Part shown: one piece after another, positions 6,201-62,291 of the stretch | Numbering within the stretch: position 1 is the first letter of the stretch | Layout of the letters: every line of letters begins with the position of its first letter | Origin: Patescibacteria group bacterium | GTDB lineage: Bacteria; Patescibacteriota; Patescibacteriia; Magasanikbacterales; GWA2-37-8 | Reading direction: 5' to 3' | DNA: 64,000 bases | NCBI GenBank assembly: GCA_041661385.1 | Contig: JBAZUP010000002.1 | Span: 14,670 to 78,669, forward strand | Notes under the pieces: model-generated | What the model saw: only the letters and a program-made list of their open reading frames with translations | The model's database searches: none | Told to the model about the DNA's origin: nothing | Translations under genes and position numbers: made by a program

Positions 6201-6226
6201 TGGCTTGAATAAGCCAAATTATACCA

Positions 6227-6255
6227 TTGACAAAAGTGCAAAAAAGGAGTATAAT
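6227..6255 (+). promoter_or_regulatory. Consensus sigma70-type promoter TTGACA-17 nt-TATAAT
   Basis: TTGACA at 6227-6232, 17-nt spacer, TATAAT at 6250-6255. It drives a ~115-nt leader and the ORF at 6373. Confidence 0.65.
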
Positions 6256-7953: not shown

Positions 7954-8769
7954 TTATTTGGCAGCAGTGGTTGCAAAAAATTTCGGTACAAAATCTTTGG
8001 TTTGATGTGGCGGAAGTCCGCGTAAAATCGGAGTAAAGGTTACTGAACATCTTTTTTGTATCATACCCTTACTTCTTCCTTTAAAGCTACAGTTGAATAA
8101 ATAAGTGGTAATTATTTCACCCCGGGAATTTTCTATTTCAACTTTTTCAAAATTAGTATAGCGCAAGCTGGCTGCTACAGGCATTTGGCGGGAATTAATT
8201 TTGAGATAATCGGTAAAAACCTTAACAATTTCTTCTACTGACATTTTACAGCCGCTTTGTTCTTTTAACTCTTCAAATATTTGTTCGGCGGTTAAAGAAT
8301 AATCCAATTCTTTTTTTTCAGGCTCAGCACTTTCAGGATTTTTTGGTATCCGGTATTCATCAGAAAAAAGCGGATGTGGTTCATCATTTTCCATCATCGT
8401 TCTTACTTCTTCAACAAACTTGCTGTGTTTTTTTGCCTGTTTAGGATTTTCTTTTTTTTCCGCAACATCCGGGTCAGCTGATTCGGAATTAAGATTAACT
8501 TTTTCTGCTATCTGGTTGTGAATATAGTCCCGCTCCTTTTTGGTAAGCAGATGATCGTGTTTGATCAACTCCATGATTTGATTAAAACGATCCATTTTGA
8601 CTTGGCGATTAATTTTTGAAGTATTTTCTAAATCAACTTTGAAAAAATAGGTTTCAATAAACCGGTCAATGCGTTTATCAAATTTATCGGCAAGTTCATC
8701 TGATTCTATTGCCGCTTTGCCGATTTCTTTTGATTTTTCAGGGTTATATCCCGAATTATTCTCAGGCAT
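7954..8769 (-). CDS. Hypothetical soluble protein encoded between lemA and htpX
   Basis: 271 aa, no TM segment, charged and low-complexity in the middle. Translationally coupled to both neighbours. Confidence 0.5.
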   Translation of the reverse strand: MPENNSGYNPEKSKEIGKAAIESDELADKFDKRIDRFIETYFFKVDLENTSKINRQVKMDRFNQIMELIKHDHLLTKKERDYIHNQIAEKVNLNSESADPDVAEKKENPKQAKKHSKFVEEVRTMMENDEPHPLFSDEYRIPKNPESAEPEKKELDYSLTAEQIFEELKEQSGCKMSVEEIVKVFTDYLKINSRQMPVAASLRYTNFEKVEIENSRGEIITTYLFNCSFKGRSKGMIQKRCSVTFTPILRGLPPHQTKDFVPKFFATTAAK

Positions 8770-31871: not shown

Positions 31872-32041
31872 TTAATTTAAGAAATATATAGACATTTTCT
31901 ATAAGTAATTTTACATTTATATATGCAAAATAGCAACCCTAGCTTTGCTATATTTCGCTTGTAACTTACTTAACTTTAGCTGTGTATACTCTGTAAGGCG
32001 GCACATTGTTACATGCGCCTTTATTATTTAGCCAAGTTAGT

Positions 32042-32956
32042 ATGAAAAAAACAACAATGCTAACAGTAATGGTTGTTGCGTTTGCAGCTGGTATTGTGTT
32101 GCCGGCGATTGTAAATGCTCAGACAATTGGAAATCAAATTACTCTTATTCTAAAAAAAGAAAATATTAATCCGGTTGTGTTGGTATCGACTAATACAATT
32201 CCTACCGCCTCAACTACGGTCATTGTTCCGGCTTTGAAAGAGGCTGCTAAACCAAACACACAAAAGATCTCGCGCCTAGATCAGTTGGTCGCCAAACTTA
32301 AATTAAATACTATTAGCAATGAAGTTTTAGAATTACAAACTGGGTTAAAAAAACTTGGGTATTTTTCTGTAAATTTTAAGCCGACAAAAAAATATGGTCC
32401 AGCAACTGCCGCGGCAGTAAAAAAATATCAGGCTGATAAAAAATTGCCTCGTTTTGAGCAGTTGGTTTCTAGACTTCGGTCCGGAATGGTAAGTAATGAA
32501 GTTTTAGAATTACAAACAGGGTTAAAAAAACTTGGATATTTATCAAAAACTTTTAAACCTACAAATAAATATGGGTCGGCAACCGCTGTCGCCGTAAAAA
32601 AATATCTGGCAGATAAAAAGAAAAAAACGAACGTTTCGACTGCGGTAAAATCGCCGGCAATAAAAACTTCGGTTGTTGCAAAATCGGCGACAGTGGTAAA
32701 ACCCGCGACTGTTCCGGTCGTGCGAAGTTATACAATGGCAGAAGTTAGTGTAAATAACAGCGCTGCGAAATGTTGGTCAGCAATTAACGGCAAAGTTTAT
32801 AATCTTACTAATTTCTTTGGTAATCATGCTGGTGGGGATCCGGCGATTGCGTCGTTATGCGGTAAAGATGGTACAGTTTCTTTTGATGCTATGCATGGCG
32901 GAAAGGTGAAACCCGAAACGGTTCTAAAAACCTTTGAAATCGGATTGTTAAAATAA
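32042..32956 (+). CDS. Secreted protein with two peptidoglycan-binding (PG_binding_1-like) repeats and a C-terminal cytochrome b5-like heme-binding domain
   Basis: Signal peptide. Duplicated LELQTGLKKLGY...KYG.ATA.AVKKY modules. C-terminus YTMAEVSVNNSAAKCWSAINGKVYNLTNFFGNHAGG (b5-like H.GG). The track ORF starts at 32006. Confidence 0.6.
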   Translation: MKKTTMLTVMVVAFAAGIVLPAIVNAQTIGNQITLILKKENINPVVLVSTNTIPTASTTVIVPALKEAAKPNTQKISRLDQLVAKLKLNTISNEVLELQTGLKKLGYFSVNFKPTKKYGPATAAAVKKYQADKKLPRFEQLVSRLRSGMVSNEVLELQTGLKKLGYLSKTFKPTNKYGSATAVAVKKYLADKKKKTNVSTAVKSPAIKTSVVAKSATVVKPATVPVVRSYTMAEVSVNNSAAKCWSAINGKVYNLTNFFGNHAGGDPAIASLCGKDGTVSFDAMHGGKVKPETVLKTFEIGLLK

Positions 32957-44871: not shown

Positions 44872-44905
44872 TCAAAAAGACCAGTGAAGCTGGTCTTTTT
44901 TTATT
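44872..44905 (+). terminator. Intrinsic terminator after trxA
   Basis: AGACCAGTGAAGCTGGTCT followed by TTTTTTTATT. Confidence 0.7.
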
Positions 44906-45300
44906 CTCGCTATCCCCGCCTACAACGCTTTGCGTAGCAATGCGGGCAGGGCTCAATCAATTTTAAGTTTACCATATATTCAATTTTCCTTAGCCCTGCC
45001 GGCGGCATCACTTTTCATAACTGAAAAGTAATCAAAAGGTTCTGGGGGCCGGCAGAACTCGTCGTGCGAACTCCTCAAACAGCTGGCGGCCCCCAAACCC
45101 CCGTTGGGTAATTAGTTTGTCAGCTTCGATTCCGAGCATATGTGAAACGACTGCAAACTTCCCGGCGAAATTAGTTTTTTCAATGCGACTTTGTACTTTT
45201 GAAAAAATCGTTAAGATTGAGCCGAGGAATTTGCGGAGTGGAGCATCAGCTCGGCGCCTTTTGGGCTCCACCCGTTTTGGGCGCACAAAATGGGTGGAAT
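44906..45300 (+). repeat. Copy A of a ~395-bp GC-rich hairpin-dense repeat (candidate structured RNA element)
   Basis: Near-identical over ~200 nt to 52955-53160, then ~70% identical with indels. Contains at least 5 strong stem-loops. ORFs 45117-45302 (+) and 45032-45364 (-) inside it are probably artefacts. Confidence 0.7.
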
Positions 45301-45399: not shown

Positions 45400-46014
45400 A
45401 TGTCTGAACTTCGGGAAGACAAAATAAAACCAGTTTTATTCTGTGATTTTGATGGAACTATTTGTCATGATCGATATTGGAGAAGTCTACCATCAGAAAT
45501 ATATGAAAAAGTGCAAAGTCTTCTTTTTGGTCTAGACAAGATCTTCATAAACGACTGGATGAGAGGAAAATATACAGCTGAAGAAGCCAATGAATATGTT
45601 TCAAAAAAAATCGATTTTCCATTTGAAGAACTTTGGAGTTTATTTGTGAATGACTGTAAAACAATGAAGGTAGATTCAGCTGTGCTAAACAAACTATCTG
45701 CATTGCGGAACGATTATAGAACTATTCTTTTGACTGGTAACATGGATAGCTTTTCAAGGTTTACAGTGCCGGCTCTGGAATTAAATAAATATTTTGATCA
45801 TGTCAGTAACTCGTATTATGAAGAAAAACACAAAACGGATAACAATGGCGAAATTTTTGTAGAATATTGTAATAAATTTAAAACGAATGTTTCCAATTCA
45901 GTATTAATTGATGATTCGCCAAAAGTTTGCCAGATATTTGCACATCTTGGTGGTACGGTAATGCAAATTACCCCCGAGACAGACATAAATTATTTTTTGG
46001 AAAATTCATTTTAA
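45400..46014 (+). CDS. HAD-superfamily hydrolase
   Basis: FCDFDGTI (DxDGT motif I) at the N-terminus. Motif II/III-like LLTGN and IDDS. Confidence 0.65.
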   Translation: MSELREDKIKPVLFCDFDGTICHDRYWRSLPSEIYEKVQSLLFGLDKIFINDWMRGKYTAEEANEYVSKKIDFPFEELWSLFVNDCKTMKVDSAVLNKLSALRNDYRTILLTGNMDSFSRFTVPALELNKYFDHVSNSYYEEKHKTDNNGEIFVEYCNKFKTNVSNSVLIDDSPKVCQIFAHLGGTVMQITPETDINYFLENSF

Positions 46015-46952: not shown

Positions 46953-49832
46953 ATGAATAAATACGACCCAAACAAAATTGAAGCCAAGTGGCAAAAGCAC
47001 TGGGAGAAAAACAAGACTTTTTGCGTTAAAGAAGATTCAAAGAAGAAAAAGTTTTATTCACTCATTGAATTTCCATACCCATCGGGTGAAGGTTTGCATG
47101 TCGGCCACCCCCGTCCCTTTACTGCCATGGACGTGATTTCGCGCAAACGACGCATGGATGGTTTTAATGTTTTGTATCCAATTGGCTTTGACGCGTTTGG
47201 ACTCCCAACCGAGAATCACGCTATCAAAACCAAACAGCAGCCCGCTGTAGTCACGAAAAAAAATATTGCCAACTTTACCCGCCAGCTCAAACTGCTCGGC
47301 TATAGTTTCGATTGGGACCGGGTGGTTGATACCACCGACCCGAAATATTTCAAATGGACCCAGTGGCTGTTTTTACAATTTTATAAACACGGACTAGCTT
47401 ACAAAAAAAATCAGCCTATTAACTGGTGCCCGAAAGATAAAATCGGCCTCGCAAATGAAGAAGTAGTAAATGGTTGCTGTGAACGTTGCGGTACCGCCGT
47501 CGAACAGCGCAACAAAGAACAGTGGATGCTCGCGATTACCAAATACGCCGAAAAATTACTTCAAGGTCTTAAAGAAGTTGACTACATTACTCCGGCCCGT
47601 GTCAGCCAAGAAAATTGGATTGGAAAAAGCGAAGGCGCGTTAGTTAATTTTGCTTTAGAGAATTCCGACGAAAAACTACAGGTCTTCACCACCCGGCCGG
47701 ATACTTTATTTGGTGCCACCTTTATGGCTGTCTCTGCTGAGCTTGCCAAGAGCTGGCTTGATAAGGGCTGGAAAGTAAGTAAGGAAATTGAAAAATATCT
47801 TGAAAAAACTTTATCCGAACAGAAAGTCCTCGACCGGGTAGAAAAAGAAAAGACCGGTATTGCGACCGATAAGTTTGCAATCAACCCCGTGAATGGAAAA
47901 AAGATTCCGGTTTGGATTACGAATTATGTTTTGGGTGGAGTTGGTACCGGCGCTATTATGGCCGTGCCCGCGCACGATGAAAGAGATTTTGAATTTGCCA
48001 AAAAGTTTGGATTGCCGATTACGCAGGTTGTAGCGCCATATTTTTACGATAGTAATAACCCGCCGCGCTCGGACAAAAAAACCGTCAAACGAATTAATAT
48101 TCAAGCCGTTGTAAAGCATTGGTCAGAAGACAAAGTAATTCAGATCCAATGGAAGGAGCAGCCCTGGAAAACTTTTGTCATCGGCGGAGCTGAAGCCGGT
48201 GAGAAGTTGGAAGACGCGGTAAAGCGGGAAGTGCTGGAAGAAACCGGATATAAAAATATCAAATCAATTAAACGAGTCGGAATGGAGCTTCGTTCGGAAT
48301 GGTTCGCCGCCCACAAAGATGAAAATCGTTATGCCAACATGAATGTTTTTGAGGTTGAACTTGCAGACGGAGAAAAAGACGAATTGTCCGCCGAAGAAAG
48401 TGAGAAGCACGTTGTCGCCTGGGTTCCTTACAAAGATATTCCGTCTTTTGCTGGAGTTGGGGAGCTGGCCTATATCTGGAAAGAATTAAATAATAAATCC
48501 GGTTGTTTTTGTGAAGACGGTGTTGCAATAAATTCCGGTGAATTTTCCGAATTGAAAACTGCCGAAACTAAAGAAAAAATGATTGCTTGGCTAGAAGAAA
48601 AGAAGATCGGCAAGCGCCAAGTAAATTATAAACTTCGCGATTGGGTATTTTCCCGTCAGCGCTATTGGGGTGAACCGATTCCGCTCGTTTATTGTGAAGC
48701 CTGCGCGAAAAATAAAAGGTTTGAAAGCAAGGGCGAAGAAATGAATCCAGGCTGGATTCCAGTTGAAGAAAAATCTCTGCCGCTCGAACTTCCAAAAGTT
48801 GATAAATATGAACCGACTGACACCGGCGAGTCGCCGCTCGCGCCAATGACAGATTGGGTAAATACTAAATGCCCGCGCTGTGGTGGAAAGGCGAGGCGTG
48901 AAACCGACACTATGCCAAACTGGGCTGGATCAAGTTGGTATTTCCTGCGTTACACCGACCCGCACAATGATAAAGCTTTCGCCGGTAAAGACGCGCTAAA
49001 ATATTGGATGAGTGTAGATTGGTACAACGGCGGCATGGAACATACTGTACTGCATCTTTTATATTCTCGTTTTTGGAATGAATTTTTATTTGATCTTGGA
49101 CTCGTGCCAACCAGTGAACCATATAAAAAGCGCACCAGCCATGGCATGATTCTCGGCCCCGATGGTGAAAAGATGAGTAAGAGCCGGGGTAATGTAATAA
49201 ACCCCGACGAAATGATTGAAAAGTTTGGTACGGATTCTTTTCGCACTTATATAATGTTCATGGGTCCGTTTGATCAGGCGGTAATGTGGGATACCAATGG
49301 GCTAGTCGGCGTCCGCCGTTTCCTCGAGCGAGTTTGGTTTTTACAAGAAAAAATTTCCGATAGTCCAGCGAGCGCAAACGCAATTTCAGTTTTGCATAGA
49401 ACCATTAAAAAAGTTGGCGAAGATATAGATACGATGCGATATAATACTGCAGTTGCCGCTCTCATGCAGCTCACCAACGATTTAATGAAAGAAGAAACTA
49501 TTGATAAAAATACTTACAAAATATTAATTCAATTGCTGTCGCCGTTTGCCCCGCACCTTTCCGAGGAACTCTGGGCAGAATATGGCGAAAAGGATTTGAC
49601 GTTTAGCGCTTGGCCGAAGTTTGATCCGGCACTAGCCAAATCCGCTACTTTTACCCTTGCCGTCCAAATCAATGGTAAGGTGCGCGATACGATCGAAGTC
49701 GACTCAGAGATAAGCGAAGCAGATGTAAAAGAATTGGTTTTGAAAAGTGAAAAGGTGCAGAAATGGCTGGAAGGCAAAGAGCCAAAGAAAATAATTTACA
49801 TTAAAGGCAAGCTTGCGAGTGTAGTAATATAG
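46953..49832 (+). CDS. leuS: Leucine--tRNA ligase with an internal Nudix-hydrolase domain insertion
   Basis: HVGHPRP (HIGH), KMSKS, CP1 editing domain (TTRPDTLFGATF, MAVPAHDERDFEFA), RDW..SRQRYWG.PIP. In addition a ~140-aa insertion at about aa 361-516 carries a perfect Nudix box GGAEAGEKLEDAVKREVLEETGY. Confidence 0.9.
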   Translation: MNKYDPNKIEAKWQKHWEKNKTFCVKEDSKKKKFYSLIEFPYPSGEGLHVGHPRPFTAMDVISRKRRMDGFNVLYPIGFDAFGLPTENHAIKTKQQPAVVTKKNIANFTRQLKLLGYSFDWDRVVDTTDPKYFKWTQWLFLQFYKHGLAYKKNQPINWCPKDKIGLANEEVVNGCCERCGTAVEQRNKEQWMLAITKYAEKLLQGLKEVDYITPARVSQENWIGKSEGALVNFALENSDEKLQVFTTRPDTLFGATFMAVSAELAKSWLDKGWKVSKEIEKYLEKTLSEQKVLDRVEKEKTGIATDKFAINPVNGKKIPVWITNYVLGGVGTGAIMAVPAHDERDFEFAKKFGLPITQVVAPYFYDSNNPPRSDKKTVKRINIQAVVKHWSEDKVIQIQWKEQPWKTFVIGGAEAGEKLEDAVKREVLEETGYKNIKSIKRVGMELRSEWFAAHKDENRYANMNVFEVELADGEKDELSAEESEKHVVAWVPYKDIPSFAGVGELAYIWKELNNKSGCFCEDGVAINSGEFSELKTAETKEKMIAWLEEKKIGKRQVNYKLRDWVFSRQRYWGEPIPLVYCEACAKNKRFESKGEEMNPGWIPVEEKSLPLELPKVDKYEPTDTGESPLAPMTDWVNTKCPRCGGKARRETDTMPNWAGSSWYFLRYTDPHNDKAFAGKDALKYWMSVDWYNGGMEHTVLHLLYSRFWNEFLFDLGLVPTSEPYKKRTSHGMILGPDGEKMSKSRGNVINPDEMIEKFGTDSFRTYIMFMGPFDQAVMWDTNGLVGVRRFLERVWFLQEKISDSPASANAISVLHRTIKKVGEDIDTMRYNTAVAALMQLTNDLMKEETIDKNTYKILIQLLSPFAPHLSEELWAEYGEKDLTFSAWPKFDPALAKSATFTLAVQINGKVRDTIEVDSEISEADVKELVLKSEKVQKWLEGKEPKKIIYIKGKLASVVI

Positions 49833-49835
49833 AAC

Positions 49836-51347
49836 ATGAGGGAGGGGATTGAAAAAATTCTAAATTCTAAAAGCAAGACGTTTCTCACGTTTTGCTTTTG
49901 TTTTATTGCGGGAAGCGCAATCGTCTCGGTTGCGGCAGTCAATATTTTTGTCTGGTATCTATATTATTTTATCTGCGCCTTGGTTTCCTTGTTAATACTT
50001 TTTTATAGTAACAAACTTTATCGATTTGTATTACTCGCGATAATATTTTTTTCGATTGGTATCTTGCGTTTTGCATTTTCAACTCCTGATTGCACACAAA
50101 GTAATAATGCTTGTTTTTATAATTCCCGATTGGTAAATGTAATTGGGTTTGTGTCCGCCGAGCCAAATGAAAAAGTTGGAGCGACCGAATATTATGTAAA
50201 TATCACACAAATTAAATTTGATAATTTAACAAATAATATTTCCGGCAAAATATTTATTAAAACCTCGCCCTATCCAAAATATCAATATGGCGACGAAATA
50301 CAAATAACTTGCAAACTTCAATCGCCGAAAGAATTGGACACTGGAGATTTTAGATATGATAAATATTTGGCCAGGTATGGAGCTTTCTCAGTTTGCTATC
50401 AACCCCAAATAAACAAGCTTGCTTCGGGCAAAGGTAATATTTTTCTTTCGGGTATTCTGACTTTTAAGAAAAATTTAAATGAACGTTTGAATAAACTATG
50501 GGTGGAGCCCGAGAGTTCGCTCATGGCCGGAGTTTTATATGGAGCTAAATCCGGCCTTCCACAATATTTGTCGGACGCCTTCAGTAAGACTGGCTTGTCG
50601 CACATTATTGCGGTTTCGGGTTATAACATTGCGATCATTGCCGTGGTCGCGATGCAGATTTTAATATATTTGGGATTTTACCGGCAAAAAGCTTTTTATC
50701 TGGTTTTGGTTTTAACCGTTGCGTTTGTTATTTTTTCCGGTATCTCAGCTTCCGCAATCCGGGCTGCCATCATGGGTGTGTTGGTGCTGGGCGCGCGGCA
50801 AGTGGGTCGGGGGAGCCGGATGATAAATGTGCTCGCCCTAACCGTTGCCCTCATGCAACTTGGGAATCCATATTTATTTTTTTGGGATGTTGGGTTTCAG
50901 CTGTCCTTCCTCGCGACGCTCGGGCTTGTATATTTGTCGCCGATTTTAAATTTAAGGCTGGAAAAAATTCCTCTTGCCGGTATCCGGGAGCCGTTCATTA
51001 CTACAATTTCGGCAATAGTTTTTACATTACCACTTATGCTCTATCAATTCGGAACCTTGTCATTTATCGCTCCGCTGGTAAATGTATTAGTTCTCTGGCT
51101 AGTTCCATATTTAATGCTTTTCGGCGCCGTTACCGTCGCTCTGTCTTTCATATTTTTTTCAATTGCTAAAATTGTAGCCGGCCTCACTTATTTTGGTTTA
51201 CATTATGTTATAATAGTTGTAGAATTTTTTGGGAAACAAGGTTGGGCCAGCGCCGCCGTCAATATTCCGCTTTGGCTCATGGTAGTGTTGTATATAGTTT
51301 TATTTTCATTTATAATCAAACAAAATGAAAAAAGTAAAAGTGTATGA
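49836..51347 (+). CDS. comEC: ComEC/Rec2 DNA-uptake channel, N-terminal (DUF4131-like) plus competence membrane domain only
   Basis: Polytopic membrane protein with the ComEC core (GLSHIIAVSGYNIAII...AIRAAIMG). It lacks the C-terminal metallo-beta-lactamase domain, which is encoded separately at 53361-54191. Confidence 0.8.
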   Translation: MREGIEKILNSKSKTFLTFCFCFIAGSAIVSVAAVNIFVWYLYYFICALVSLLILFYSNKLYRFVLLAIIFFSIGILRFAFSTPDCTQSNNACFYNSRLVNVIGFVSAEPNEKVGATEYYVNITQIKFDNLTNNISGKIFIKTSPYPKYQYGDEIQITCKLQSPKELDTGDFRYDKYLARYGAFSVCYQPQINKLASGKGNIFLSGILTFKKNLNERLNKLWVEPESSLMAGVLYGAKSGLPQYLSDAFSKTGLSHIIAVSGYNIAIIAVVAMQILIYLGFYRQKAFYLVLVLTVAFVIFSGISASAIRAAIMGVLVLGARQVGRGSRMINVLALTVALMQLGNPYLFFWDVGFQLSFLATLGLVYLSPILNLRLEKIPLAGIREPFITTISAIVFTLPLMLYQFGTLSFIAPLVNVLVLWLVPYLMLFGAVTVALSFIFFSIAKIVAGLTYFGLHYVIIVVEFFGKQGWASAAVNIPLWLMVVLYIVLFSFIIKQNEKSKSV

Positions 51348-51351
51348 ATCA

Positions 51352-51392
51352 TAAAACCCCCGACAGTAACACTGTCGGGGGGTTTTATTTTT
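51352..51392. terminator. Bidirectional terminator
   Basis: AAAACCCCCGACAGTAACACTGTCGGGGGGTTTTATTTTT. Confidence 0.7.
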
Positions 51393-51442
51393 AGCTTTTA
51401 TAAAAAAAATAGTAAATATTTTTTGAAATCCGCTGAGCTTTC

Positions 51443-52165
51443 TTATATTTTTTTAGCAACAGTTATGAGATGCCAAGCATTTATAAATGTGGATCCGTGT
51501 CCGACATAGTCATTTGAAATAATCTTTAGGTCGGCTTTTGAGATTAAAGATTTAATTTCTTCTTTGTGAAAGCAGTGAATGTATAAATTTTTTTTCTCTT
51601 CCCCAATCCATGAGTCATTTTTATCAAGAGATGGCAGTGATCTGCCTAACCAAAGATGCCAGAGTTTTTGTCGCGTGACAGAATGCCAGCATCGGACATT
51701 CCAATTGGCCATAAGAAGTTGCCCGCCAGGTGTCAACACGCGAGCAATTTCTTTAATTGCCTTCTGTCTTAATTCACTACTAGGGATATGGTGCAAAACA
51801 CCAAAACACAGAACAACATCGACTGATGCATCGGCAAGAGGGATATTCAAAACATCTCCCAACAATAGTTTTACGCGGATTGGGTTTGTACCCGTGTTAT
51901 GTTCTTTGATATAGAAATCTGCAGCCGCTAGCATTGTTTGTGAAATATCCTGGCCGATGTAATCTGTAATTTGTTTGTTGACTGCGGAAAAAGCGACGCC
52001 GTTACCACAACCTAGATCCAACAAACGATTTCCTTTACCATATTTATTCCATAGCTCTTTAAGTTGTTCTGGGGGTGTAATTCTGCTAGCGGCCCAATCT
52101 TTTGCCATTTTTTCATATATAATTGCATTTGACTTTAGAATAGCTTCAGCGATTTTCAAATCCAT
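51443..52165 (-). CDS. Class I SAM-dependent methyltransferase
   Basis: LDLGCGNGV motif I. 240 aa. Confidence 0.75.
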   Translation of the reverse strand: MDLKIAEAILKSNAIIYEKMAKDWAASRITPPEQLKELWNKYGKGNRLLDLGCGNGVAFSAVNKQITDYIGQDISQTMLAAADFYIKEHNTGTNPIRVKLLLGDVLNIPLADASVDVVLCFGVLHHIPSSELRQKAIKEIARVLTPGGQLLMANWNVRCWHSVTRQKLWHLWLGRSLPSLDKNDSWIGEEKKNLYIHCFHKEEIKSLISKADLKIISNDYVGHGSTFINAWHLITVAKKI

Positions 52166-52338
52166 ATGATTTATTTGATATGAAAGTTAATCAGAATTCA
52201 TTAAATGATTATTGTTACTACTATACCAGTTATTTTCTTCATAGTATAGTAATAGAATTTCATTAAAAATATGATATAATAATATTAGATATTTTGATAA
52301 AATAGTTAATGTAGTTATGTATAATTTCCACAAACAAA

Positions 52339-52944
52339 ATGAAAAAAGTAAAAGTATATGATTCGAGGGAGGGGTATAATCTCGCTGCGCACGAATATGA
52401 TAAGCGTGAAGCTTATCTTGGAAGTTTTGAAAAAAATCAACTCATCCCGTTGCTTGGAGATTTGAAGGGCAAGAAAGTTCTTGATGTGGGAGCGGGAACC
52501 GGCCGGTTATCGGTTTCATTTGCGAGACTAGGGGCAGGCGTTACCGCGCTCGACGTTTCGGAAACAATGCTTCAGGAATTATCAAAAAAGAACCGCAACA
52601 TTAAAACCGTAATCGGTGACGCGGAAAGTTTGCCTTTTGAAAACGAAGCATTTGATATTGTCGCCGCCGCTTTTCTTATTGTCCACTTGAAAGACCCGAC
52701 CAAATTTTTTGATGAAGCTTATCGCGTATTAAAGGACGGCGGAATTTTTTTAGTGACAAATATTAATCAAAAAGATCCGCCTAAGATCAAAGCCCACAAT
52801 CATGAGTTTGTGGTCGAATCGTTTTATCATCGCCCGGAGAAAATTAGGGAGATATTGGAATCTTTGGCGTTTGGAATAGAGAAAGAAGAGTTTATAAAAG
52901 AAAATGATGTTTGGATTAATCAAATAATTCTTGCTAGAAAATAG
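52339..52944 (+). CDS. Class I SAM-dependent methyltransferase
   Basis: VLDVGAGTGRLS motif I. 201 aa. Its promoter/5' end (TATAAT...CAAACAAAATGAAAAAAGTAAAAGT) is duplicated at the 3' end of comEC. Confidence 0.75.
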   Translation: MKKVKVYDSREGYNLAAHEYDKREAYLGSFEKNQLIPLLGDLKGKKVLDVGAGTGRLSVSFARLGAGVTALDVSETMLQELSKKNRNIKTVIGDAESLPFENEAFDIVAAAFLIVHLKDPTKFFDEAYRVLKDGGIFLVTNINQKDPPKIKAHNHEFVVESFYHRPEKIREILESLAFGIEKEEFIKENDVWINQIILARK

Positions 52945-52954
52945 TTTTACGCAT

Positions 52955-53350
52955 CTCGCTATCCCCGCCTGCAACGCTTTGCGTAGCAATGCGGGCAGGG
53001 CTCAATCAATTCAACACTTACCTTAATTCAATATTCCTTAGCCCTGCCGGCGGCATCACTTTTCATAACTGAAAAGTAATCAAAAGGTTCTGGGGGCCGG
53101 CAGAACTCGTTGCCGCGAGGCACCTCAAACAGCTGGCGGCCCCCAAACCCCGTTGGGTAATTGGTTGGTAAACAATTGGATTCCGAGCCTTTGTGGAACG
53201 AAAGCCAAATGTCCGGCGAAATTAGATTTTTTCAATGCGACCCTGCACTTTTGAAAAAATCGTTTTGATTTCGCCGAGACATTTGCCGAGTGAAGCATCT
53301 GCGAGGCAATTTTGGGGGCACACCTTTTGTTGCCAAAAGGGGTGTGGAAT
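52955..53350 (+). repeat. Copy B of the ~395-bp GC-rich hairpin-dense repeat
   Basis: Starts directly after the methyltransferase stop codon. Aligned to copy A in the text of the findings. Its last hairpin overlaps the putative RBS of the downstream ComEC-MBL gene. Confidence 0.7.
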
Positions 53351-53360
53351 AAAATGTTTT

Positions 53361-54191
53361 GTGACAAAAAACAAAATTTTAATAATCGCAATTATAATAA
53401 TCCTAGGGGGATTTTTTTATTTCCGCTATTCTGAAGCGGAACGCCACAAATTTAAGATTGTATTTTTAAATGTCGGCCAGGGTGATGCAACTGTAATACA
53501 ATTTGAAACTGGAGAAAAAATGTTGGTGGATTGTGGGCCTGATCGGGGGATTCTCTCGGCACTTGGTCGCAACCTGGCTTTTTACGACCGTACTATTGAT
53601 TACCTTTTAATCTCTCATCCCGATCTTGATCATTATGGCGGCTGTGTGGATGTTTTAAAAAATTATCAGATAAAAAAGATCTATATAAATGGACGGGAAA
53701 AAACCGACTCGTATTTTCGGGAGTGGAAAAGTGTGAGTACCGGATATTTAACTGAAATCGCCGGCGTCTCAACCACTCTCACCATTGCTTCATCGTCGTT
53801 CCGATTTTTTTCGCCGGACTTATCTTTGGTTTTTAAAAATAAAATATCCGATAATGATTATTCAATAATTTTTAAATTAAGCCATGGTAGCAGCAGTTAT
53901 TTGTTTACCGGCGACGCCGAAGAAACGCTGGAAAAATTATTAGTTGAAAAATATTGTCCGGAAGTAAATAATGCCTGTCCACTTCAGTCTGGTGTTTTGA
54001 AAGTTGGTCACCACGGTTCCGACGGATCTTCGAGTGAGTTATTTTTGTCGCGGGTGAAGCCAATTGAAGCTGTCATTTCGGTTGGCAAGAATAAATTCGG
54101 CCATCCGGGCCTGCGTGCCATCCGCCACCTTGAAAGAATTGGCGCGAAAATCAAACGGACTGATGAAAGCGGGGACATTTCTATAAAATGA
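53361..54191 (+). CDS. ComEC-type metallo-beta-lactamase-fold domain protein with an N-terminal TM anchor (detached C-terminal domain of ComEC)
   Basis: FLNVGQGDATVIQ ... ISHPDLDHYGG (HxHxDH) ... VGHHGS. GTG start at 53361. The in-frame ORF extending upstream to 53235 runs through repeat B and is not conserved with copy A at the protein level. Confidence 0.7.
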   Translation: MTKNKILIIAIIIILGGFFYFRYSEAERHKFKIVFLNVGQGDATVIQFETGEKMLVDCGPDRGILSALGRNLAFYDRTIDYLLISHPDLDHYGGCVDVLKNYQIKKIYINGREKTDSYFREWKSVSTGYLTEIAGVSTTLTIASSSFRFFSPDLSLVFKNKISDNDYSIIFKLSHGSSSYLFTGDAEETLEKLLVEKYCPEVNNACPLQSGVLKVGHHGSDGSSSELFLSRVKPIEAVISVGKNKFGHPGLRAIRHLERIGAKIKRTDESGDISIK

Positions 54192-54365
54192 AAAACTCTT
54201 GACGATATTCGTCGGCAAGAGTAAACTTTTTGTAAATATAGGCTGGCTTGCCAGCTGCTACAAAAGCGGCTCAGGCCGCACCTGGGGGCCCCTCCCCATC
54301 AGCGCCGTCGATCCAAAGATCTCCGGCGCTTTAAATTTAGATGAAATTTACTGTGCAAAATAGCC

Positions 54366-54394
54366 TTGACAAAGTTGATAAAAAGGAGTATAAT
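54366..54394 (+). promoter_or_regulatory. Consensus promoter TTGACA-17-TATAAT, near-duplicate of the promoter at 6227
   Basis: TTGACAAAGTTGATAAAAAGGAGTATAAT vs TTGACAAAAGTGCAAAAAAGGAGTATAAT. Confidence 0.65.
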
Positions 54395-54399
54395 TCGAT

Positions 54400-54740
54400 G
54401 TTGTGACAGTACGGAATTAGCCATTTTTGGCTTATCTGGCTGACGATTTTGGCTTGTTTTGAGCCAAGGTCGGCAGCCGGATTTCCCGGCGCCACAACCA
54501 AAGGGGTCTTTAAAGACTCAAATGACGACCATCACCAGCTTCAGCTTTTCCCACGTTCACATCGATCGTCACACCGCGGGCGCCGTCGCGCCCTGACCCG
54601 TCGCCGCCGGCCGCCGAAGCCGACAGTTAGCGCCTGGTGCGCTACCTGACCGGTTAGGCCAACCAACTCCTCATGGAGGAGTCACATCGTGAAGATCACG
54701 AAGCCGAAGGTTCCGCTGTAGCGGATACAACCCCCAACAC
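54400..54740 (+). other. GC-rich (~58% GC) transcribed segment between the promoter and terminator with no convincing ORF: candidate non-coding RNA of unknown class
   Basis: Only ORFs are a TTG-initiated Arg-rich 66-aa frame without an SD, plus 24-aa and 10-aa fragments. Hallmark motifs of tmRNA (T-arm/CCA), RNase P (GGAAAGTCC) and SRP were looked for by eye and not found. Confidence 0.35.
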
Positions 54741-54778
54741 CGGGCGGCCGAGCAATCGGCCGCCCTCATCTTTTTTTG
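54740..54778 (+). terminator. Intrinsic terminator
   Basis: GGGCGGCCGAGCAATCGGCCGCCC followed by TCATCTTTTTTT. Confidence 0.7.
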
Positions 54779-54834
54779 GAAACAAAAACAAAAAATGTTA
54801 TAATAATTGCGCCTCGTTTTAGGGCACGGGCATT

Positions 54835-62255: not shown

Positions 62256-62291
62256 CCTGCCCGCATTGCTACGCAAAGCGTTGCAGGCGGG
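62256..62291 (-). repeat. Isolated inverted copy of the 5' hairpin module of the 395-bp repeat
   Basis: CCTGCCCGCATTGCTACGCAAAGCGTTGCAGGCGGG is the reverse complement of CCCGCCTGCAACGCTTTGCGTAGCAATGCGGGCAGG at 52965-53000. The real groEL terminator hairpin follows at 62312-62345. Confidence 0.65.

Follow-up and report, generated by a model that had tools for sequence, protein, structure and literature searches.

A probable lineage-specific insertion that duplicated a comEC/methyltransferase gene overlap in a Patescibacteria group bacterium

In a 64,000-nucleotide (nt) stretch of DNA from a Patescibacteria group bacterium (assembly GCA_041661385.1, contig JBAZUP010000002.1, positions 14,670–78,669 of the forward strand), the gene for the membrane part of ComEC is followed by two class I S-adenosylmethionine (SAM)-dependent methyltransferase genes, here named MTA (minus strand) and MTB (plus strand), and then by a separate metallo-beta-lactamase (MBL) gene. 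This stretch, to which the genome data for the organism were limited, is referred to as the window, and coordinates are those of the window unless another locus is named. The evidence as a whole is best explained, in our judgement with good confidence, by an insertion specific to this lineage: a segment of 980 bp (51351–52330), consisting of a terminator, MTA and an AT-rich spacer, would have entered the site at which comEC and MTB overlapped, and 34 bp of that junction would have been duplicated, so that one copy now stands on each side of the insert.

The duplicated junction is visible as a direct repeat of 51317–51350 (left copy, plus strand) and 52331–52364 (right copy, plus strand), which a repeat finder aligned with 32 of 34 bases matching (94%) and 1,014 bp between the two starts; the longest exact run is 25 nt. 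This repeat, pointed out in an initial annotation of the same DNA, is real, as a search of the window with up to three mismatches returned these two sites and no others, and 100 dinucleotide-preserving shuffles returned 0 matches. The two mismatches are G at 51342 versus A at 52356 and A at 51348 versus T at 52362. The left copy spans the final nine codons of comEC, its TGA stop (51345–51347) and three bases beyond, while the right copy comprises an 8-nt leader and the first 26 nt of MTB, that is, codons 1–8 plus two bases of codon 9 of a protein beginning MKKVKVYDS. Read in the MTB frame, which differs from that of comEC, the left copy starts with ATG at 51325 and encodes MKKVKVYES-stop, ending at 51354, just as the initial annotation had it; this ghost MTB start overlaps the last 23 nt of comEC. 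The same annotation had extended the repeat to a TATAAT motif on its 5′ side. TATAAT does precede both copies, but at unequal spacing (51311–51316, at 0 nt; 52320–52325, at 5 nt), and local alignment of the flanks past the 34 bp scored 25 against a shuffle mean of 21.5 (standard deviation (sd) 2.8), with 16% of the shuffles scoring as high. Because this flank similarity is not significant, a 40-bp repeat including TATAAT is not claimed, and the 34 bp, with nine comEC codons, are what stands of the originally described extent.

Gene order and junction structure were compared with those of 84 related loci, consisting of 80 loci from one-per-species genomes plus the four closest relatives (L081–L084), whose ComEC proteins are 51–55% identical to that of the window. 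The order leuS-comEC-MTB-MBL-(L,D-transpeptidase)-nusA is shared by 14 genome loci and by L081–L084, together 18 MTB-bearing relatives. MTB follows comEC directly in all 18 and MTA is found there in none of them; moreover, the segment 51351–52330 is missing at this site from all 84 related loci. In 9 of the 18, MTB starts inside the 3′ end of comEC, with an overlap of 22–86 nt (23 nt in L081 and L083, 25 nt in L082, 22–23 nt in L013 and L015, 41 nt in L012, L021 and L054, and 86 nt in L034). The ghost overlap in the left copy, at 23 nt, is that of L081 and L083, in both of which the junction alignment places the TGA stop of comEC at the homologous position. In the same alignment, the sequence upstream of the left copy is homologous to the 3′ end of comEC in both L081 and L083, and the sequence downstream of the right copy is homologous to the relatives' MTB from codon 9 on, whereas the inner flanks of the two copies match nothing. 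Since the outer flanks are homologous and the inner ones unmatched, a single ancestral junction appears to have been hit by an insertion together with a duplication of the junction. The proposal of the initial annotation that 51351–52330 was inserted into a pre-existing comEC-methyltransferase junction is thus upheld by the gene order of all 18 MTB-bearing relatives, by the 23-nt overlap geometry and by the flank homology. In the synteny comparison that it had suggested as a check, a split ComEC is common to the relatives, as described below, and one methyltransferase (MTB) is present there, MTA never.

The two copies also give an indication of age. The 8-nt leader before the ATG (CAAACAAA) is the same in both copies and different in every relative, and the duplication is therefore taken to have arisen after this lineage and the sampled relatives diverged. 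The second mismatch sets the T of an Asp codon (GAT), found in the right copy and also in L081, L083 and L084, against an A in the left copy. Such a substitution at 51348 would be expected if the left copy no longer has to encode MTB, and the left copy appears to be decaying in the MTB frame. The comEC-MTA-MTB arrangement is not an assembly artefact, because three other samples yielded contigs (ENA ERZ27249449, Logan SRR18595301 and Logan SRR6484324) that are 100% identical to the window over the stretches they cover; two of the three contigs span both 34-bp copies with the same two mismatches, and the third holds the left copy only.

Several observations weigh against an insertion as described. 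Even the nearest of the sampled relatives share no more than 55% identity in ComEC and none offers a true empty site, nor did the protein collection hold a closer relative with one (next ComEC 52–55% identical, next MTA 33%), and the event can be dated only loosely. MTA cannot be traced to a donor, because its best non-self match among 5.8 billion proteins is only 32–33% identical. A foreign composition of MTA was looked for and not seen, its GC content and codon usage lying within 1 sd of those of the window genes. The duplication, at 34 bp, exceeds the target-site duplications of known transposons, and the mechanism of the insertion is itself one that we infer. Finally, the promoter from which MTB would now be read is a mere hexamer match (TTGATA at 52295–52300 and TATAAT at 52320–52325, plus strand) with a 19-nt spacer, and a consensus scan made no call there.

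A mobile element or an integrase could have made the insertion, the 34-bp repeat then being a true target-site duplication of the transposon type or of the type left by Cas1-type integrases, which duplicate 14–37 bp. We consider this unlikely. As in the insertions of transposable elements, one target is found as a direct repeat around a discrete, sharp-ended insert, the outer flanks are old neighbours, and the insert even starts at a hairpin. However, it contains no transposase, integrase or cas gene, and among its open reading frames (ORFs) only the methyltransferase gene matches a known family; terminal inverted repeats are lacking, the sole inverted repeat located at an end being the terminator hairpin; and it is present as a single copy, blastn against the window and all 203 loci fetched in this study finding the insert itself only. 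Transposon and casposon duplications span 2–15 bp, and 34 bp falls outside this range. Thus, among the hallmarks of a transposon, a direct target duplication was found, at an atypical length, and a transposase, terminal inverted repeats and further copies were not.

Alternatively, MTA and both repeat copies could be ancestral, with the relatives having lost MTA by recombination between the 34-bp repeats. Deletion between direct repeats would indeed yield the overlap junction seen in L081 and L083, and the composition of MTA matches that of the host genome. Yet this history is distinctly improbable: it is unparsimonious, as MTA is missing from all 18 MTB-bearing relatives, deeply diverged ones included; the overlaps of the relatives vary in both length (22–86 nt) and sequence; no MTA homologue above 33% identity was found among the 5.8 billion proteins; and the leader 8-mer, shared by the two copies and by no relative, points to a young duplication. 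Chance or convergence, acting through A-rich low complexity or shared coding constraint, is a very improbable origin of the 34-nt similarity. The repeat is A-rich, and the MTB N-terminus is conserved to the point that 23 of its 26 nt are common to the window and L083, but nothing comparable arose in the shuffles, the non-coding 8-nt leader is identical as well, and a shared protein constraint cannot explain the left copy because that copy is read in a different frame.

On the preferred reading, an insertion with junction duplication, events ran as follows. In the ancestor of this lineage, the order was leuS-comEC-MTB-MBL, as it is in the sampled relatives, with MTB starting 23 nt inside the end of comEC. 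The 980-bp segment, made up of a bidirectional terminator, the opposite-strand MTA and an AT-rich spacer, landed in the comEC/MTB overlap, and the 34 nt around the overlap were doubled, so that the insert is flanked by a copy at either end. The left copy (the ancestral overlap junction) now serves as the comEC tail only, with a dead MTB start, and the right copy as the working 5′ end of MTB. Because the last eight codons of comEC and the first eight codons of MTB share bases, neither gene would survive intact alongside the other unless the insertion doubled the overlap; for that reason selection would keep such events, and this selective filter on the outcome may explain the unusual 34-bp length better than any enzyme geometry does. 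The likeliest route would have involved no transposase: either 34-nt staggered breaks would have been filled in around a captured fragment, or a short tandem duplication of the junction would have come first and the fragment would have entered it afterwards. The locus would then be an example, dated by synteny, of how overlapping genes become separated: the overlap is duplicated, and the upstream gene ends up carrying a start codon that no longer functions.

The contents of the insert suggest what the event did to transcription. At its left edge, a hairpin at 51357–51381 (11 pairs, eight of them G-C) carries T-runs on both strands and resembles a bidirectional intrinsic terminator, which would end transcripts of comEC in one direction and those of MTA in the opposite one. 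MTA itself occupies 51443–52165 on the minus strand (240 amino acids (aa)). The AT-rich spacer between the divergent MTA and MTB (52166–52338) has its last 8 nt (52331–52338) in the right repeat copy, and the GC fraction drops to 0.24 in the 300-nt window 52100–52399. With a promoter-like site on the minus strand (52300–52271) and the plus-strand hexamers given above, the spacer probably holds both the MTA promoter and a new MTB promoter. comEC would now end at the terminator, uncoupling MTB and MBL from comEC, and MTB-MBL would probably be read from the new promoter in the spacer, whose TATAAT at 52320–52325 predicts a leader of ~6 nt.

Both methyltransferase genes lie where the initial annotation had placed them, and the proteins of both match the SAM-binding Rossmann-fold domain over its full length. 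MTA matches Pfam Methyltransf_11/25/31 (PF08241, E 8.1e-23), and MTB (52339–52944, plus strand, 201 aa) matches PF08241 (E 1.4e-25). For their function, searches of NCBIfam and PDB sequences gave generic class I methyltransferase matches only, and no specific NCBIfam equivalog was reached. The question whether the two are paralogues, also raised in that annotation, was answered in the negative as far as recent paralogy is concerned: they are 29% identical to each other over 116 aa, compared with 55–68% between MTB and the orthologues that occupy its position in the 14 genome loci. In L081–L084, the methyltransferase between comEC and MBL measures 201 aa in three loci and 203 aa in one.

The upstream gene (49836–51347, plus strand, 503 aa) encodes the membrane/competence part of ComEC, with PF13567 (DUF4131; E 1.9e-16) and PF03772 (Competence; E 7.2e-49), and its product matches positions 25–348 of the 663 positions of the ComEC/Rec2 model TIGR00361. 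The MBL gene (53361–54191, plus strand), again as placed by the initial annotation, encodes 276 aa from a GTG start, with a Pfam Lactamase_B domain and an N-terminal hydrophobic segment; its orthologue in L081 likewise has 276 aa. The MBL protein covers positions 423–663 of TIGR00361 and aligns to the C-terminal part of fused Chloroflexota ComEC. The TIGR00361 scores of the comEC and MBL proteins are 82 and 112 bits, respectively, both under the equivalog cut-off of 190. The canonical single polypeptide with a C-terminal MBL domain is not what is found here, as comEC stops at 51345–51347 and MBL is a separate ORF; the two genes are predicted to make up a two-gene ComEC.

This division is old. 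ComEC-N and MBL were both visible in 58 of the 80 genome loci; 52 of these encode them as separate ORFs, whether or not another gene intervenes, and the six in which they are fused are all labelled Chloroflexota or Anaerolineae; the lactamase domain is also missing from all of the 120 best ComEC homologues (~500 aa each). CPR (Candidate Phyla Radiation) bacteria have been described as essentially without the ComEC-lactamase fusion (Meheust et al. 2019, Nat Commun, PMC6744442), and the unfused CPR proteins treated there resemble those of the window and the 52 loci in having the DUF4131 and Competence domains only. Added to that account are the retention of the MBL part as a separate gene, adjoining or near comEC, and the methyltransferase between comEC and MBL, often overlapping comEC, in a Magasanikbacteria-like subgroup, a detail absent from the portion of that paper considered here. 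The initial annotation had proposed that a ~2-kb segment with the 34-bp repeat at its borders broke up a once-contiguous comEC, an idea that is almost certainly wrong in spite of the two ORFs jointly covering TIGR00361 (25–348 and 423–663) with ~2 kb between them, as the repeat bounds ~1 kb, both of its copies lie upstream of MTB, and the 52 split loci, the 120 lactamase-less homologues and the published CPR non-fusion refute it. Judging from these comparisons, the two-gene ComEC is an old, stable and normal arrangement in Patescibacteria, not a recent disruption, and both the separation of its membrane and MBL parts and the presence of MTB between them are much older than the 980-bp insertion. 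In one relative, the ComEC and methyltransferase domains are found in a single 700-aa ORF (P0100). The conservation, in one CPR subgroup, of a methyltransferase between comEC and its nuclease-like MBL partner, often overlapping comEC, hints at a functional link with DNA uptake. The insertion is itself an ordinary lineage-specific scar within an already known CPR gene arrangement and its stakes are modest; a 36-nt element found in the same region, described below, could matter more.

Between MTB and MBL lies copy B (52954–53349, plus strand) of a ~395-bp repeat, located where the initial annotation had reported it, whose partner is copy A (44905–45298, plus strand). Copy B is a composite, strongly folding, GC-rich non-coding sequence. 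The two copies have a folding z-score of about −5 on either strand and differ by six compensatory pairs; Rfam gave no credible match for copy B. Because MTB and MBL are nearly adjacent in several relatives, copy B is taken as a second lineage-specific insertion. A structured module of ~115 nt at 53052–53165 (and 45003–45115) is ~92% identical to positions 8391–8485 (minus strand) of L084, where it lies inverted in the MTB-MBL spacer. L084 is a distant relative (ComEC 51% identical), and at least one stem change in the module looks compensatory. The module may be mobile, or it may encode a small RNA; it had no Rfam match, and a 22-mer from it had no match in viral contigs. Copy A, together with a HAD-family hydrolase gene (45400–46014), is located between trx and fpg, which are adjacent in L081 and L082. 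The GC content (0.32) and GC3 (0.26) of the HAD gene are more than 2 sd below those of the window genes, and copy A plus the HAD gene looks like another lineage-specific insertion beside a repeat copy.

The 36-nt element is an imperfect palindrome, CCCGCCTGCAACGCTTTGCGTAGCAATGCGGGCAGG, present in three copies in the window: at 52964–52999 (plus strand), at 44915–44950 (plus strand, one mismatch) and at 62256–62291 (minus strand). An exact 23-mer taken from it matched more than 118 metagenome contigs. Among the matches listed, to which the following counts refer, the host contigs range from 30 to 62% GC, 93 of 120 copies have the same sequence, and the conserved stretch stops sharply at 36 nt, the flanks being unrelated and AT-rich. 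In 31 cases the element lies in frame inside ORFs of up to 1,341 aa, where it is read on the reverse strand as PARIATQSVAGG, and six copies are nested in another copy, five at its exact centre and one 4 nt off. The hosts that could be named include Amesbacteria, Woesebacteria and a Parcubacteria group bacterium. Judged by sequence, the host genes include those for LeuS, SecA, UvrA, GyrB, a UvrD-like helicase, NrdD, TypA, a MiaB-like enzyme and MgtE. Alignment or source annotation likewise identifies LeuS, SecA and NrdD, the source annotations giving SecA, NrdD and a DNA helicase.

Beyond the window, the element is recorded for loci L085–L203, and filled and empty sites are clear in two proteins. 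The LeuS of L179 and its 90%-identical relative (P0143 versus P0144) differ by exactly 12 aa, corresponding to 36 nt, with no target-site duplication; and the NrdD protein P0269 has the insert while P0271 and P0275, of the same 90% cluster, are without it. The features of a mobile palindrome of the Rickettsia type, namely, filled and empty sites between close relatives and in-frame presence in intact coding genes, are therefore both found. In a GyrB gene, a 39-nt variant keeps both the hairpin and the reading frame; this gene (L123, 1481–5503, minus strand) also has what, judged from its sequence, is an intein-like insert. A MiaB-like protein (L150, 6635–8170, minus strand) contains two related peptides, LRKSASLAL and FRKSESLAL, which may stem from another small repeat family.

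A location inside tRNA genes was tried as an explanation and rejected, as ARAGORN restored no tRNA at any of the 120 junctions after in silico deletion of the element. A preference for host hairpin loops is weak (23% versus 15% of control sites; P=0.03). No match to the element was found in viral contigs, phage records or plasmids, in Rfam, or in the ComEC loci of the 84 relatives, and a literature search found no paper with its sequence or peptide, or one that describes palindromic elements in CPR.

The 36-nt element resembles the Rickettsia palindromic elements, the GC clusters of yeast mitochondria and bacterial repetitive extragenic palindromic (REP) sequences in being a short, GC-rich, imperfect palindrome with many dispersed copies, in occurring both between genes and in frame within them, with a tolerated peptide, and in having filled and empty sites among close relatives. 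It differs from all three in being near-identical across diverse CPR lineages of 30–62% GC, in leaving no target-site duplication and in inserting into the centre of its own copies. At 36 nt (39 nt in the variant), it is also much shorter than the Rickettsia elements, which are roughly 100–150 bp long. REPs have been described with a terminal GTAG/CGTC tag (PMC3733652); the 36-nt element is without such a terminal tag, GTAG being found only at its centre and never at an end. Whether CCCGCCTGCAACGCTTTGCGTAGCAATGCGGGCAGG represents a family of tiny mobile palindromes, so far undescribed and spanning CPR lineages, is, in our view, an evenly balanced question, and it is possible that the clutter around comEC (repeat copies A and B) was built by such elements. 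If such a family is real, few known mobile DNA units would be as small as this palindrome; should its status as a new mobile element be confirmed, both the calling of genes and the alignment of proteins in CPR genomes would be affected, and an unknown insertion mechanism would be implied.

Some further features of the window were recorded beside these loci. Between the MBL and L,D-transpeptidase genes, a near-consensus promoter (TTGACA-17-TATAAT) at 54366–54394 is found at the same place in L081, L082 and L083, and a similar one lies at 6225–6255. On its 3′ side lies a non-coding stretch of ~430 nt whose GC content reaches 57% (region 54360–54834), blocks of which are shared mainly with L082. 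Rfam gave sub-threshold matches only for this GC-rich region after the MBL gene, none of them credible, and 54360–54834 is put forward as a candidate unannotated RNA gene. The leucyl-tRNA synthetase encoded upstream of comEC (46953–49832) has a NUDIX hydrolase domain at residues 402–496, just past the portion that aligns to the editing-domain model (positions 1–145 of 185). The NUDIX domain is also present in the LeuS of L081 and L082 and, together with a HAD domain, in that of L084, and the LeuS of L179 is without that insert of ~190 residues. Elsewhere in the window, at 32315–32619, a 128-nt unit is repeated after 177 nt with 84% identity, inside or beside the ORF 32006–32956.

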